From Halorussus marinus (GTDB lineage: Archaea > Halobacteriota > Halobacteria > Halobacteriales > Haladaptataceae): a stretch of DNA of 64,000 nucleotides. Shown here one piece after another: positions 29,382 through 38,214 of this stretch (its first letter is position 1; every line of letters begins with the position of its first letter). The stretch lies in contig NZ_SBIV01000007.1 of the NCBI RefSeq assembly GCF_004765795.1, positions 1-64,000 on the forward strand, read 5' to 3'. Position numbers and translations under genes: made by a program. Below the pieces are notes generated by a model. The model was not told where the DNA came from and made no database searches. It saw only the letters and a list, made by a program, of their open reading frames with translations.

Positions 29382-29675
29382 CTATGCAATCTGTCTGACT
29401 GACTCAAGTCCCGGGACACCAGCCAGTCTGTCTCTGATCTCCTCCTCGCCAATTGCCGTAGCCCACCGGACCGTAATTTCGACGGTAATGAGTGTGGCCG
29501 ACAGCTGTGGATCGATACTATCCAATTCGTCAATCGTGACGGCATCGATAGTTTCGGGCCGCGAGAGACGCTTCTCAGCGTCAGTGACGAGGTCCCCATC
29601 TGCGCCGCAGGGGATTCGAATCGTCACGACGGCAATTGTCGTCGATTCTGGGTCGGTAGTACTGGATACTGCCAT
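29382..29675 (-). CDS. Small hypothetical protein downstream of the RNA operon
   Basis: 97 aa from MAVSSTT; acidic; GGAGATGA SD-like sequence upstream. Confidence 0.6.
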   Translation of the reverse strand: MAVSSTTDPESTTIAVVTIRIPCGADGDLVTDAEKRLSRPETIDAVTIDELDSIDPQLSATLITVEITVRWATAIGEEEIRDRLAGVPGLESVRQIA

Positions 29676-29833: not shown

Positions 29834-31363
29834 CTAGGTCGGCTCGAACGCCTCGATTTCATCGATGATCTGCTTCGGATTCTCGGCGTGTTCGATGAAC
29901 GAGAGGACGTTCTCTGACCATCCCGAGATGTTGTAGACGTTCTCGTAGCCTTCTGGCGTCACTAGGTCTCCGTAGGCCGCGAGATCGACGAGATACAGCG
30001 CGGTGTCCGCAGACACCGCGTCTCGATACGCATCGAACGCGTCCTTGACCGTCTGGGAATCGCGGGCCGTGAACGGCGTGTTGTCCCAGATCTGCATATC
30101 GGTGAAGACGACGATGCGTTCGACGGGCTCACCTCGCTCGCGGAGGTAATCGATTGCCTTCCAGCCGTTCGTCGAGTTCCCGGTATCCTCGTCGATCGCC
30201 AACACCGCTGCTTGGCGCTGCAGGACTGGCGTGTCGACGTGCATCGGAACGGTCTGGAAGTCGTCGCCGAACCCGCCGACGTCAGCACCTTGGTCGGCCA
30301 GGATCGCACCGAACAACGCACCGATCTCCTTCAGTCGGAGCGTGCTGTTCGCGGACAGCGGCTGATCCATCGACCCTGACAGGTCGACCGCGACAAAGGT
30401 ATCGCCGAATCCGCCAGGCACCGTCTCGACCGCGACATCAATTGCATCTTCGAGCCACTGCTCGACCGTCGGTGCCTGGACGTCCGCGTCTTGCAGCGCG
30501 GTGTAGGCCTGGTAGTACCGGAACGGGTACAGCGGCGCGTGTCGGACGGCCTCCAGGTCGAGGTGATCCACGACGGTGTCCTCCGGCACGCCGGCTTCGA
30601 GCATATTCCGGAGGTTCCGGATCGACGCGAAGATGGGCAGCGTGTACTCGTCGTCCTCGATGAGCAGTTCCCAGGCGGCTTGGGTGTTGCCGCGCTCGGA
30701 AATAACCGTCTCCCACGTGTTCGGCGCCGGCAACGGGTCGACGTCGGGATAGTCGTCAAGGCCACCACGCATGAACCGCTCGAAGAGCGCTTCCTGCTCG
30801 GCGTCGACGGGCGTGGGGTGGACGCGGTTGAAGACGTCGTGCAGCGTCACCTCGCGCCGCGACAGGTCGTACTTGCCCAGCGTGTAGGCGTCGGCCATCT
30901 CCACCAGTGCGTCCTCGATCCCGCGTCGAAGCGGCCACGGCGCAGTCCCGCCGAACAGCTGATCGTGGACCGCGAGCGCGGTGGCCGTCTCGTCCATCCG
31001 CTGGATGATCGCCGGCGCCCATTCGCGGATGAGCGACTCGGGGGAGTCGTCCTTGAATCGGTCGTCGTTGGCTGCCAGTACGAGTAGCACTTGTGGGATG
31101 TCCCGCAAGTAGAGCTCCTGGCGAGCATAGGCCGCGAGCTTCAGGACGAACTCCGGGTCCTCGTTTGCGGCGGCATCGAACTGGCGAACGACAGCAGCCA
31201 GCTGCTCGTCATCGGTCTCGTAGAACGACCCCTCCAGCAGCTGGTTGATCGTGCGCTTGTACAGTGCGAGTAGGGGGTCGGCAGGCTCGAACGCTTCCCC
31301 ACCTTCGTAGTTGGTGGTCCGCGTTGCCTCCGCGACCGTTTGCTTTGGCGTGTTGAATTCCAT
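29834..31363 (-). CDS. rsr: Ro60 / TROVE-domain RNA-binding protein (Rsr-like) with vWA domain
   Basis: TROVE motifs TTNYEGGEAF, DPEFVLKLAAYAR..LYLRD.P, DAYTLGKY, TWET, ASIRNLRN, YPFRYY; vWA MIDAS DLSGSM and VFTDMQ; SD GGTGA upstream. Confidence 0.93.
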   Translation of the reverse strand: MEFNTPKQTVAEATRTTNYEGGEAFEPADPLLALYKRTINQLLEGSFYETDDEQLAAVVRQFDAAANEDPEFVLKLAAYARQELYLRDIPQVLLVLAANDDRFKDDSPESLIREWAPAIIQRMDETATALAVHDQLFGGTAPWPLRRGIEDALVEMADAYTLGKYDLSRREVTLHDVFNRVHPTPVDAEQEALFERFMRGGLDDYPDVDPLPAPNTWETVISERGNTQAAWELLIEDDEYTLPIFASIRNLRNMLEAGVPEDTVVDHLDLEAVRHAPLYPFRYYQAYTALQDADVQAPTVEQWLEDAIDVAVETVPGGFGDTFVAVDLSGSMDQPLSANSTLRLKEIGALFGAILADQGADVGGFGDDFQTVPMHVDTPVLQRQAAVLAIDEDTGNSTNGWKAIDYLRERGEPVERIVVFTDMQIWDNTPFTARDSQTVKDAFDAYRDAVSADTALYLVDLAAYGDLVTPEGYENVYNISGWSENVLSFIEHAENPKQIIDEIEAFEPT

Positions 31364-31478: not shown

Positions 31479-31553
31479 CGTTCCCGGCACGATTCGAACG
31501 TGCGACACCCGGCTTCGAAGGCCGGTGCTCTGTCCTGACTGAGCTACGGGAAC
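31479..31553 (-). tRNA. tRNA-Arg(TCG)
   Basis: Canonical cloverleaf: GTTCCCG TA GCTC..GAGC A CCGGC CTTCGAA GCCGG GTGTC GCACG TTCGAAT CGTGC CGGGAAC G. Confidence 0.95.
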
Positions 31554-31556
31554 ACG

Positions 31557-31640
31557 AGTGGCCGAACAATTTCTGGAGCGAACGACGGGATTCGAACCCG
31601 TAGCGTGCCATCGACGTAGCGCTCCAGATCGACGGCCACT
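31557..31640 (-). ncRNA. Y-RNA-like ncRNA Y1 (84 nt)
   Basis: AGTGGCCG/CGGCCACT stem; TCGA x AATTGTT loop; TCTGGAGCG/CGCTCCAGA 9 bp; CTACGTC; T-arm ACGGG TTCGAAT CCCGT; no anticodon arm. Confidence 0.75.
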
Positions 31641-31647
31641 GGCGACA

Positions 31648-31795
31648 CGGCGACCGGAAAACTGTCGGAGCGGGACCGGTGTCGAGCGTCCTCTCGGACG
31701 CTCTTTGTCCGGGATGTTCTCGATGGACTGCGCCACCGACAGGATTTGAACCTGCGAGTTCCTGGCGAAGCAACGCTCCGACTCGACGGTCGCCA
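31648..31795 (-). ncRNA. Y-RNA-like ncRNA Y2 (~148 nt)
   Basis: TGGCGACCG/CGGTCGCCG; TCGA x AGTTTTC; GTCGGAGCG/CGCTCCGAC; TTGCTTC; T-arm GCAGG TTCAAAT CCTGT; extra GAGCGTCC-GAGA-GGACGCTC GNRA hairpin. Confidence 0.75.
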
Positions 31796-31887
31796 CGTGC
31801 GGTCGGGCAACCGGTGGTGCGACGGGCTATGACTCCCGTTGGTGTGCTTTGCGGGCGAAGAAACGCACCACCTCGACGACCACACGC
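31795..31887 (-). ncRNA. Y-RNA-like ncRNA Y3 (~93 nt)
   Basis: GCGTGTGGTCG/CGACCGCACGT; TCGA x GGTTGCC; GGTGGTGCG/CGCACCACC; TTTCTTC; T-arm-like ACGGG AGTCATAG CCCGT. Confidence 0.72.
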
Positions 31888-35319: not shown

Positions 35320-35406
35320 CGCCGCGACCCGGATTCGAACCGGGAGACCGATAGCAGACGGCCACGGCATAGCAGGCCGCTGGGTTCCCCAATACCCAGT
35401 CACGGC
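35320..35406 (-). tRNA. tRNA-Ser(GCT), C8 and extendable D-stem
   Basis: GCCGTGA/TCGCGGC-G; GGGT..ACCC; GCGGC CTGCTAT GCCGT; long variable arm; CCCGG TTCGAAT CCGGG. Confidence 0.87.
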
Positions 35407-35410
35407 ACAG

Positions 35411-35483
35411 TGAGCCGACGAGGATTCGAACCTCGGTCCTGTGCGCCCGATGCACAGATCGTCGTCCGCTGGACCATCGGCTC
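35411..35483 (-). tRNA. tRNA-Pro(CGG)
   Basis: GAGCCGA/TCGGCTC-A; TGTGC ATCGGGC GCACA; CGAGG TTCGAAT CCTCG. Confidence 0.87.
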
Positions 35484-35732
35484 ACGGGACTGCCGAGCGT
35501 TCGGCAGCTGATTATCTATCTGTACGACTTTCCAGCTGCGCAACCACGAACGGGTGGTCGTGGTTGCGCGTCTCATCGCGGGGGCGTACTTCGGGTGCTC
35601 CCGGGAATACCACACCGGCTCATGTAGGTTGCAGACCCTGCTGGGCCCAGCATCGTCGGAACGATCCAGCTGATCGCACCAACGGGCTGCCTACCTCGAT
35701 GGGTATCCCCACGTGGCCACGCCACGCATCCA

Positions 35733-35806
35733 CGCCGACGCCGGGATTTGAACCCGGATCACGGCCGTGACAGGACCGTATGCTCGCCGGATTACACCAC
35801 GTCGGC
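35733..35806 (-). tRNA. tRNA-Asp(GTC)
   Basis: GCCGACG/CGTCGGC-G; CGGTC CTGTCAC GGCCG; CCGGG TTCAAAT CCCGG. Confidence 0.93.
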
Positions 35807-35809
35807 ATG

Positions 35810-35885
35810 TCGCCCCGGCCGGAATCGAACCGGCGACCTCCGGATTCAAAGTCCGGCGTCCCTCGCCAGCGGAGACTCCGGGGCT
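35810..35885 (-). tRNA. tRNA-Gln(TTG), G8 and 1-72 mismatch
   Basis: AGCCCCG GA GTCT CCGCTGGCGAG GGAC G CCGGA CTTTGAA TCCGG AGGTC GCCGG TTCGATT CCGGC CGGGGCG A. Confidence 0.86.
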
Positions 35886-35889
35886 CGAC

Positions 35890-36330
35890 GTAGCCGCAGC
35901 TCTCGCTGCGGAGTTGTTGGCTAACGACTTCCGTACGCTCAGCGCGGACGGAGTCCGCTCGCTCCTGTATCGAAACGAACGGAAACCAATCAGCCGCGAG
36001 CCTGGCATCCCGCACTCGCATCAGGCTGTGTCCTGAGCGAGTACTGGGCACAGGCAGGCGGCAATCCCGTGTTCCCCGACCCGTGACGGGTAGTCCGTAT
36101 GGGGGCCGAGTTATGCGGGTGAGAGTGTCCGGACGTCGCCGGATTGCGTCGAACTCTCGTATTCGAAGTCGACGTGGATCCGGCGGTTTGCGCCCGGGCT
36201 CTTCGCACGCTGATCTTGTAGGCACTCGCCGAACACGGGACCCGCGGCTAAGCGAGAACGAGCACGCCGCGGGATGAGGCGAGTGATGATCATCGTGTTG
36301 AACTCTCTCGGTTTGAGGGGTGTCTCGGAC
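35890..36330 (-). ncRNA. Large structured non-coding leader or ncRNA at the head of the tRNA array
   Basis: Multiple perfect helices, including crossing pairings 36231-36240/36065-36074 and 36009-36014/36114-36119; no credible ORF. Confidence 0.55.
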
Positions 36331-36356
36331 GTCAACCTGGAATATCGTGGCAATTG

Positions 36357-36364
36357 TATTAAAA
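36357..36364 (-). promoter_or_regulatory. Archaeal TATA box (TTTTAATA), probable promoter of the RNA operon
   Basis: The only strongly AT-rich tract upstream of the array, correctly oriented on the minus strand. Confidence 0.6.
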
Positions 36365-36608
36365 TTAGTTAGGGTGTGTTACCCACAGGCACGGTAGTTT
36401 CACTTCAAGATGCGGTTGCACACGATTTATTTCTCCAATATCAGCTGTCGTCGATAGCTGGACGCTGGCCGGTGTCCTCGGTTGGACCCACAGAAACTAT
36501 TTACACCAACCTGCTCTCTGTGGCGATAGATGAGTGGCCGATCGCCGGTCCGGTGCTAGCCGGGAGCCCAGTCACACGGCGTGACTGACGGTTCTCGGTT
36601 AGATACCA

Positions 36609-37365: not shown

Positions 37366-38214
37366 ATGAATGGCCGTGTCTACTACCATCACCCCGAGGA
37401 CTCTCAGTACTCTCTCGCCTATGTCACTCGGGACAAAGATGAAATAACGACATCCGGGCAAGATGCGATCATTGAGGACTACGATCTTGATAAGGAGTTC
37501 TTTGTACTGTATACGAATCGTGGGGCGAGTGGAACGGTTGAGGATCTTGACGACGAGTTTGAAGATGTGCTTGATGAAATGTCGCCACAGGACCGGATGA
37601 TTACGGTACGGTTGCTTCAGATCTTCGAGGAAATCATTGAGGAGAAAGCGCTCGAAGAGGAAGCGAAGCTCGAAATTTACAAGCAAATCGAGCTGGAGCG
37701 GATTCCCGACGCTATCGCACGTGTTGATTGGAGTGGAACCGCCGTTGATGTTGCAGGGCAGCTGATGTCTACGCTTATTCTGAAACACGCGTTGCCCAAT
37801 GCGAATCACCGGACGTCGATCAGTATGGCTCAGTGGTATCTGGAGAGCATCGAAACCGGGTTCTCATTCCCGGACTTTGCGACTGAAGAGTACGATTGGA
37901 AATCGTGGGTCAACGAGTACATTACCGAGTCGAAACGGCTCCTCACGGTTCGGCGGAATACGACAGCATTCTCGTTGCTTGCTGAATGGGGGTGTGACAC
38001 CGTGCTGCGGAAAAATGGTATTGAGATCGTTCTGGCAGAGTATGACCTAGATTTCACCCGCTCAGAAGCGTACGAGCATTATGGAGAACTCCACACCGAA
38101 CTCTGTACGAACTTCCTTACTGACTCTGTCACGCGTGCTGGGCACGACGAACTCATCGCTACCGAAGGTAATGGAAAAGCGGAATTCGTCTCGTTCCTCG
38201 AAGAGGCAGAATAA
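37366..38214 (+). CDS. Fic/Doc-like protein
   Basis: HALPNANHRTS resembles the Doc-type HxFxNANKRT motif. Confidence 0.7.
   Translation: MNGRVYYHHPEDSQYSLAYVTRDKDEITTSGQDAIIEDYDLDKEFFVLYTNRGASGTVEDLDDEFEDVLDEMSPQDRMITVRLLQIFEEIIEEKALEEEAKLEIYKQIELERIPDAIARVDWSGTAVDVAGQLMSTLILKHALPNANHRTSISMAQWYLESIETGFSFPDFATEEYDWKSWVNEYITESKRLLTVRRNTTAFSLLAEWGCDTVLRKNGIEIVLAEYDLDFTRSEAYEHYGELHTELCTNFLTDSVTRAGHDELIATEGNGKAEFVSFLEEAE

Follow-up and report, generated by a model that had tools for sequence, protein, structure and literature searches.

The tRNA array in the window (the whole 64,000-nucleotide stretch of Halorussus marinus DNA analysed here) was found to be headed by a conserved structured leader RNA, the 5' half of which is occupied by a short open reading frame (ORF). 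Homologs heading other haloarchaeal tRNA arrays were found and no Rfam family matched, in agreement with the initial annotation, which had proposed an undescribed element; on comparative sequence evidence, the conserved leader with its ORF is a new motif. A location behind a conserved promoter, the ORF, a Shine-Dalgarno (SD)-like site, a nested structure and the content of the operon were all established from sequence. As to function, the leader was tentatively read as a ribosome-dependent attenuator allowing read-through under translation stress, a reading to which we give slightly less than an even chance.

Promoter, position and spread of the leader

The element is on the minus strand, between the TATA box (36363-36356) and the first base of tRNA-Gln (35885). 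With the TATA box on one side and tRNA-Gln on the other, it was taken as the 5' end of the array transcript. A TATA box near 36357 and an RNA heading the tRNA array had both been claimed earlier, and both were found, the element lying directly 5' of tRNA-Gln. Between 35885 and 29732, ARAGORN located 14 minus-strand tRNAs. The features at the start of the array transcript were as follows.

36372-36382, minus strand: conserved motif upstream of the promoter, GT-N1-3-CAYACY, a candidate binding site for a transcription factor; inspection by eye showed it in most of 42 homolog promoters
36356-36363, minus strand: TATA box, with transcription predicted to start at about 36335-36330
36302-36309, minus strand: SD-like purine stretch, weak in this copy, identified by duplex energy with the anti-SD motif
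36293-36111, minus strand: leader ORF of ATG, 59 codons and TAA, unannotated; frame conserved, peptide not
35732-35885, minus strand: tRNA-Gln(UUG) and tRNA-Asp(GUC), the first tRNAs of the array (ARAGORN/Rfam)

The CAYACY-type motif precedes the TATA box by about 10 nt, and in the whole genome a regular expression for motif plus TATA box had no matches other than the two array promoters. A similar motif was seen by eye in front of two Ro60 loci without a leader (L294 and L296), and it is possible that the motif is the site for an unknown stress regulator. The SD-like stretch was scored against what we take to be the anti-SD motif, giving a duplex energy of -6.5 kcal/mol compared with -2.9 kcal/mol for shuffles, and shuffles were beaten in 40 of 42 homologs.

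A second leader, 79% identical to the first, was located in the same genome (contig C11, 67183-67663), together with a tRNA array and a Ro60 gene of its own. Both leader contigs had a GC content of about 58% (57.6% for the window contig), compared with about 68% in the large contigs of the genome. Matches were obtained in 48 of 401 Halobacteria genomes and 24 of 91 genera, and in 0 of 6 genomes of the same genus; together with the low GC content, this was consistent with mobile DNA. Pattern scans contributed a further 48 and 55 stretches from genomes, 103 from metagenomes and one from a virus, and the distinct core-anchored copies numbered 151, or 152 with L286. Three pattern matches in coding DNA (L086, L208 and L100, the sole viral one) were rejected as chance, and annotated phages gave tRNA matches only. 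When a covariance model of the core was run over 151 genomes of the phylum, scores above 100 bits were obtained only in 3 Halobacteria genomes, for copies already known, and weak matches scoring 16-20 bits, of which five fell outside Halobacteria, were taken as chance. Another full element, close to haloarchaeal metagenome copies, came from a contig (L225) listed under a Bacteroidales MAG; this contig is probably mis-binned.

The Rfam search that had been proposed as a check returned nothing over the leader at the gathering score or at E ≤ 10, a chance match aside. Over the leader and E2, a second structured RNA in the array (gathering score; E ≤ 10 or 5), only a chance match to mir-504 (E 1.6) and a chance opposite-strand match to Scr6925 were returned. 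Over 14 divergent loci, Rfam gave tRNAs and chance-level matches across the element, and no family.

Open reading frame and fold of the leader RNA

The statement that no acidic ORF is present was literally true of this region, but it overlooked the conserved non-acidic ORF at 36293-36111, and the label "non-coding" did not hold for a 5' half occupied by a frame-conserved ORF with an SD-like site. In 133 of the 136 copies that could be tested, the first ATG after the promoter, defined as the first one at least 35 nt past it with the frame ignored, opened a frame ending at the core-hairpin UAA, after 8 copies that were too short and 8 without a match to the promoter expression had been set aside. 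Among the latter 8, five had an in-frame ORF, two had lost the 5' end and one was a chance match. The three exceptions were two Halovenus copies (50 codons, closed in another frame by a TGA that falls 8 nt short of the core UAA) and one copy with a premature stop. The TAA was present in 46 of 46 rows anchored by the loop motif alone; the later search pattern includes the TAA itself. The length of the ORF varied from 147 to 189 nt (49-63 codons); the distance from the UAA to tRNA-Gln took 24 values, spread 8/8/8 over the three remainders modulo 3. Across the 37 tree edges used, out of 45 that join neighbouring copies, gap lengths were divisible by three in 9 of 11 cases inside the ORF, compared with 5 of 56 downstream. 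From 953 parsimony substitutions about 26 stops were expected in the ORF, and 0 were present in the 46 rows, which had been chosen from intact copies.

The peptide was much less constrained. The dN/dS of the ORF was 0.82 over 13 pairs, compared with 0.92-1.04 in five other frames, and change was nearly equal at the three codon positions (16.0/17.5/18.1%). Conserved codons were also fixed at the third base (CGG in 46/46, CAG in 43/44 Gln codons), and in divergent copies the arginines are lost and differences reach 14 codons. The peptide had no Pfam or NCBIfam match, and its relatives were just 13 unnamed or hypothetical gene-caller predictions in metagenomes. As for sensor codons or an arrest peptide, the homologs showed no run of codons and no peptide motif that varied synonymously. 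The GC3 was 0.64 in the leader ORF and 0.86 in host genes. A leader contained 36.9 distinct codons compared with 26.7 in windows of host genes; the gain over the leader's own shuffles was just +1.6, so this diversity is mostly base composition and was rejected as a feature of the ORF. Since the frame is kept and the peptide is hardly under selection, it appears to be the act of translation, rather than the peptide, that selection keeps.

For all stem checks, the region was read as minus-strand RNA. The four helices reported as perfect were present in this copy (8/8, 8/8, 8/8 and 6/6 pairs), as were two proposed crossing pairings (10/10 and 6/6) and 7 of 8 pairs of helix 36026-33/36046-53. Perfect stems by themselves are not above chance: those of at least 6 bp numbered 35, compared with 28.1±5.1 in 200 dinucleotide shuffles, and those of at least 8 bp numbered 5, compared with 2.0±1.5 (6.5% of shuffles get as many), and a 10-bp perfect stem turned up in 15.5% of shuffles. 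The fold of the whole region was strong (MFE -219.4, z -7.24), and 0 of 100 shuffles reached it.

In an alignment of 46 copies with less than 93% identity to each other (A2), a nested structure of 75 pairs was paired in 92.2% of cells, and 40 pairs had changed on both sides. None of 500 shuffles was as good and slid controls were paired in 36-41%, although the structure was derived from the same 46 sequences and the test leans its way. Three of the reported perfect helices, which belong to the nested structure as H1, H2 and H3, were kept in A2 (92.5%, 94.4% and 93.1%) and the 6-bp one partly (74.3%). The elements of the structure were as follows.

36224-36284, minus strand: nested helices H1 (36284-78/36230-24) and H2 (36272-66/36248-42), in the ORF, from the alignment
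36128-36185, minus strand: helix H3 (36185-79/36143-37) and a mutually exclusive alternative (36143-39/36132-28); inner H4 partly kept
36066-36119, minus strand: core hairpin with 4-bp outer stem, 5x5 A-rich internal loop, 8-9-bp stem, 4-bp top stem and ANUAC loop
35993-36062, minus strand: P6, long GC-rich hairpin with variable interior, 92.6% paired, double changes at 8 of 10 pairs
35974-35990, minus strand: U-rich tract after P6, candidate termination site, U fraction 0.46, the top of the 3' half
35894-35980, minus strand: 3' non-coding hairpins P8 (95.3% paired), P9a (91.0%), P9b (90.0%) and P10 (72%)

The core hairpin was the most strongly conserved of the hairpins. Its stems were 99.5%, 95.4% and 99.4% paired, its loop bases were invariant, its A-rich internal loop holds the UAA stop of the ORF, and it persists even in those copies that are the most reduced. 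H1 (92.5% paired) and H2 (94.4%) had two double-change pairs each. H3 and its alternative were 93% and 97% paired in homologs; both use a self-complementary CCGG, and the mean probability of the alternative rose from 0.04 in the full RNA to 0.65 once the sequence 5' of 36145 was removed, with no predicted effect on downstream structure. Pairing of 35988-84 with bases 36215-11 of the ORF is possible (87.8% paired), but its mean probability is just 0.06. Double changes were seen at all 10 P9 pairs, and the 3' hairpins were absent from minimal copies.

The description of the RNA as pseudoknotted was not borne out. In A2 the two crossing pairings fell to 73.7% (9/10 pairs; one unpaired in 32/46) and 56.9%, and helix 36026-33/36046-53 was 40.1% paired. 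Jointly the three were 58.0% paired, which 72 of 500 shuffles reach; not being kept across 28 and then 46 homologs, they were rejected. The 3' strand of the 10-bp crossing pairing pairs instead with 36119-36116, in 99.5% of cells. The expected compensatory changes were present as double changes in the nested helices, but our own phylogeny-aware, R-scape-like test of all pairs, which has low power, gave no pair with E < 1 (best 4.0) and is too weak to exclude pseudoknots other than the two proposed. The covariation support therefore comes from directed tests on a structure drawn from the same sequences, in which pairs with P ≤ 0.001 were found in the 3' hairpins P6b, P8, P9a and P9b, and the pseudoknots had none below 0.2.

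Operon context and RNA libraries

The leader forms the front of a mobile haloarchaeal operon, which comprises spare tRNAs, Y-RNA-like repeats and Ro60 and in some cases RtcB or RlaP; the window contains the following parts of it.

35490-35710 (core 35710-35603), minus strand: E2, second conserved structured RNA, between tRNA-Asp and tRNA-Pro, no Rfam family
31558-31886, minus strand: three tandem Y-RNA-like units (31886-31796, 31795-31648 and 31639-31558), before tRNA-Arg and Ro60
29834-31363, minus strand: Ro60 gene with TROVE and vWA (PF05731, E 5.5e-21; PF25045, E 8.1e-7)
29382-29675, minus strand: 97-aa orphan gene after tRNA-Gly, which stays with the leader in minimal copies

At least 7.6 kb of upstream sequence was available for 33 of 41 Ro60 loci, and the full leader, E2 and 5-26 tRNAs preceded Ro60 in 30 of these 33, many of the genomes having also supplied training copies; the remaining 3 had no ARAGORN tRNA upstream. 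In reduced copies, the promoter, ORF and core hairpin are followed immediately by RtcB, by the 97-aa gene, or by a few tRNAs together with RlaP. The ORF and core hairpin survive where tRNAs and E2 are lost, and the leader is always promoter-adjacent. At seven loci (L034, L040, L043, L044, L103, L159 and L218), tRNA-Gln, tRNA-Asp or both are decayed, interrupted by hairpin insertions or gone, and leader and E2 stay. At L036/L290, a deletion fuses the first 24 codons of the leader near the start of Ro60, and the whole array is gone. RlaP nucleotidyltransferase genes were seen in or after the array at L045, L039 and L211, with an ADP-ribosylglycohydrolase gene also downstream at L045.

In E2, an alignment of 42 sequences gave 28 predicted pairs, 13 of them with double changes. 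It has a 14-pair basal helix, a 5-bp helix with one pair double-changed in 24 of 42 sequences, and invariant junction bases. Long-range pairing between leader and E2, judged by eye from duplex folding, was inconsistent across 47 copies. The Y-RNA-like units have a common bulged closing stem, and two of them a tRNA T-arm. At least one such unit was found in 38 of 41 Ro60 loci, compared with 110 of 8332 genome windows. Their scores were below the YrlA cut-off, and they are candidate archaeal Y RNAs; the open-licence literature searched gave nothing joining Y RNA, Ro60 and halophilic archaea. The family of the 97-aa protein had 151 matches, often as the sole gene left behind the leader, and no family in Pfam or NCBIfam searches. 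For the homolog of the second genome copy a ferredoxin-like fold was predicted (pLDDT 74), with generic matches to SSo6206/MTH889-type, EF-1beta and ACT folds (TM 0.41-0.60).

The RNA data consisted of assembled contigs only, in which coverage gaps carry no weight. In three metatranscriptomes, which have different study codes but the same year and habitat label and possibly come from one campaign, leader contigs ended at 36323, 36302 and 36234, with a minor one at 36268; no contig from these three covers 36324-36440, and a fourth run continues upstream. The ends gave a weak hint that transcription starts near 36330. One contig spans 35347-36323, covering leader and E2, which is not proof of a single transcript. 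Contig depth, a rough summed value that cannot rank genes reliably, was 138, 39 and 13 over the leader, compared with 13885, 4449 and 361 in the Y-RNA-like bin 31544-31807; over Ro60 it was about 43, 38-71 and 10-26. The E2 bins had the highest depth of the operon's 5' part in two runs. The low depth of the leader argues weakly against an abundant, rRNA-like RNA.

Proposed role of the leader and alternative readings

The attenuator reading was drawn from a presumably translated ORF with a free peptide, a stop in the most conserved hairpin, a promoter-adjacent position and downstream genes that relieve translation failure. A short ORF with a start signal indeed lies between the promoter and the downstream genes, as in known attenuators. 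The ORF would be translated as a general trial of ribosome function, as suggested by codons far from the host-preferred set and a peptide that is not conserved. A ribosome reaching the UAA would melt the core hairpin and the ORF helices and expose the pyrimidine- and U-rich RNA behind, and transcription would then stop, probably via FttA/aCPSF1. The genome contains a gene of TIGR03675, presumably the FttA family. With damaged tRNAs or stalled ribosomes, the fold of the leader would persist, and the polymerase would continue past it through the tRNAs, Y-RNA-like units, Ro60 and RtcB/RlaP. RNase P would cut at the 5' end of tRNA-Gln, which the 3' end of the leader abuts, and this cut would free the leader from read-through transcripts. 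Somewhat more tentatively, the whole may be an archaeal ribosome-sensing riboregulator, with a 60-codon test ORF, an arbitrary peptide and a hairpin-locked stop, that turns on a mobile operon of spare tRNAs, archaeal Y RNAs, Ro60 and RNA ligase upon failure of translation; it would then do in RNA what bacterial RtcR and TrcR do as proteins.

Several results did not favour such a switch. No terminator/antiterminator pair was found in the leader, which counts against an attenuator. A scan for intrinsic, bacterial-type terminators, which is blind to archaeal factor-dependent termination, found none in 35400-36500. When the ORF was masked in silico, the 3' helices kept nearly the same probabilities and the candidate alternative hairpin reached at most 0.06. 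Refolding with a ribosome at the stop was rejected, as no notable alternative hairpin was predicted. The leader contigs were no deeper than those of E2 behind, which a strong attenuator might not predict. The two Halovenus copies with the earlier stop, the copy with a premature stop and the all-pairs covariation test without a pair at E < 1 also count against the reading. As the two leaderless Ro60 loci have a similar promoter motif, stress control may act at the promoter instead.

Constitutive protection is the best placed of the alternatives, though unlikely. A ribosome loaded at the leader ORF would spare the long untranslated transcript from FttA polarity or 5' decay, the hairpins would stabilise the transcript, and any regulation would lie at the promoter. 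The kept frame with a free peptide, the dedicated promoter motif and the missing switch output in silico agree with this, as do the 3 of 33 Ro60 loci that have neither a full leader nor upstream ARAGORN tRNAs, and polarity in archaea has been attributed to FttA in the part of PMC12548453 available. However, the ORF and core hairpin remain intact in divergent copies without an array, where a protein gene follows after about 120-220 nt, and the hairpin-buried stop and the alternative helices are left unexplained.

A trans-acting large RNA with an mRNA-like domain, which would bind or park ribosomes or scaffold Ro60/RtcB, is slightly less probable again. It could act alone (about 450 nt) or joined to E2 (about 850 nt with two embedded tRNAs). 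The joined form would fit the contig spanning both and their staying adjacent when tRNA-Gln and tRNA-Asp decay or vanish, and the linker of GOLLD can hold tRNAs according to the available part of bioRxiv 2024.12.08.627333, but no consistent pairing joins leader and E2, and the GOLLD model had no match. The covarying 3' hairpins also favour a trans-acting RNA, yet they are lost in minimal copies, and the far greater depth at the Y-RNA-like units speaks weakly against it.

It is improbable that the 60-residue basic peptide is itself functional, for instance as an arginine-rich RNA binder on the core hairpin. Near-equal change at the three codon positions, almost no synonymous variation at conserved residues, the loss of arginines and length differences in divergent copies and the missing Pfam/NCBIfam match outweigh the intact ORF and SD-like site, the slightly lower dN/dS and the 13 gene-caller predictions. 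The purely non-coding pseudoknotted RNA or processing ribozyme of the initial annotation is very improbable: the strong overall fold and invariant loop bases agree with it, but the ORF is conserved, the pseudoknots are not kept, and Rfam gave no family and no ribozyme match over the element, nothing else found pointing to a ribozyme.

If the attenuator model is right, the leader would act like a leader-peptide attenuator, with neither sensor codons found in its homologs nor an intrinsic terminator in 35400-36500. In PA5471.1/armZ of Pseudomonas and rli80/hflXr of Listeria, as described in the covered parts of PMC13041342 and PMC6310831, full translation stops transcription and stalling gives read-through. 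These share with the leader a short ORF in a structured leader before genes for translation trouble; they are bacterial and use an intrinsic terminator, and the rli80 ORF is of 14 aa with an RLR motif, whereas the haloarchaeal leader has 49-63 codons, no peptide motif or intrinsic terminator found, and a cargo of mostly tRNAs. The trn operon of Anabaena PCC 7120 (TrcR regulon) is a plasmid tRNA array that is silent until translational stress and co-regulated with rtcB (PMC10272220). The haloarchaeal array, for which induction is a prediction, resembles it by gene content, and in the text covered the Anabaena operon has a DNA-binding repressor and no translated leader. With Ro60, Y-RNA-like repeats and RtcB/RlaP, the haloarchaeal operon also resembles Salmonella rsr-yrlBA-rtcBA, in which Ro60, Y RNAs and RtcB respond to damaged tRNA (PMC7790460, in the part covered).

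The suggested kinship with GOLLD or ROOL found no support, as the GOLLD model (RF02032), built on the conserved 3' region, had 0 matches in the genome at E ≤ 10. The ROOL model (RF03087) also had 0 matches, but its controls were equally silent; neither GOLLD nor ROOL was among the Rfam matches. Both are likewise large structured RNAs near tRNA islands, and the GOLLD linker may contain tRNAs (bioRxiv 2024.12.08.627333, in part), whereas the leader has nested hairpins, is half ORF and is not the deepest RNA of its operon. The YrlA model (RF02553), tried for the leader, gave at best 29.8 bits in 5 genomes, compared with a cut-off of 69, and its match in the window fell on tRNA-Asp/Gln. The hallmarks of tmRNA are tRNA-like ends and a resume codon without SD or AUG; ARAGORN found no tmRNA, and the ORF has an ATG and an SD-like site. 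The arrays are of the same kind as the haloarchaeal tRNA clusters already described by Morgado and Vicente (PMC6333295), with TROVE in 20 of 29 and plasmid links; "ncRNA" and "non-coding" are absent from the main text, and no leader appears in the portion covered. A search of titles and abstract openings, with subscription journals mostly absent, found nothing on a haloarchaeal leader-peptide attenuator, this element or haloarchaeal Y RNAs.

If the attenuator reading is true, the leader would be a compact genetic handle on archaeal transcription-translation coupling and FttA termination, the switching-on of silent haloarchaeal tRNA arrays would be explained, and the arrays would belong, with Ro60 and the abundant Y-RNA-like RNAs, to an operon for RNA repair. 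Even without a switch, a covarying RNA of 450 nt with an ORF apparently kept for its frame and not its product would be a new motif.

Two further genes were observed in the window. A TnpB/Cas12f-like gene (PF07282; 32817-34058, plus strand) is inserted in the array on the opposite strand, and a 282-aa ORF (37366-38214, plus strand) had a weak death-on-curing (Fic/Doc) match, with E 1.7e-4, below the cut-off.
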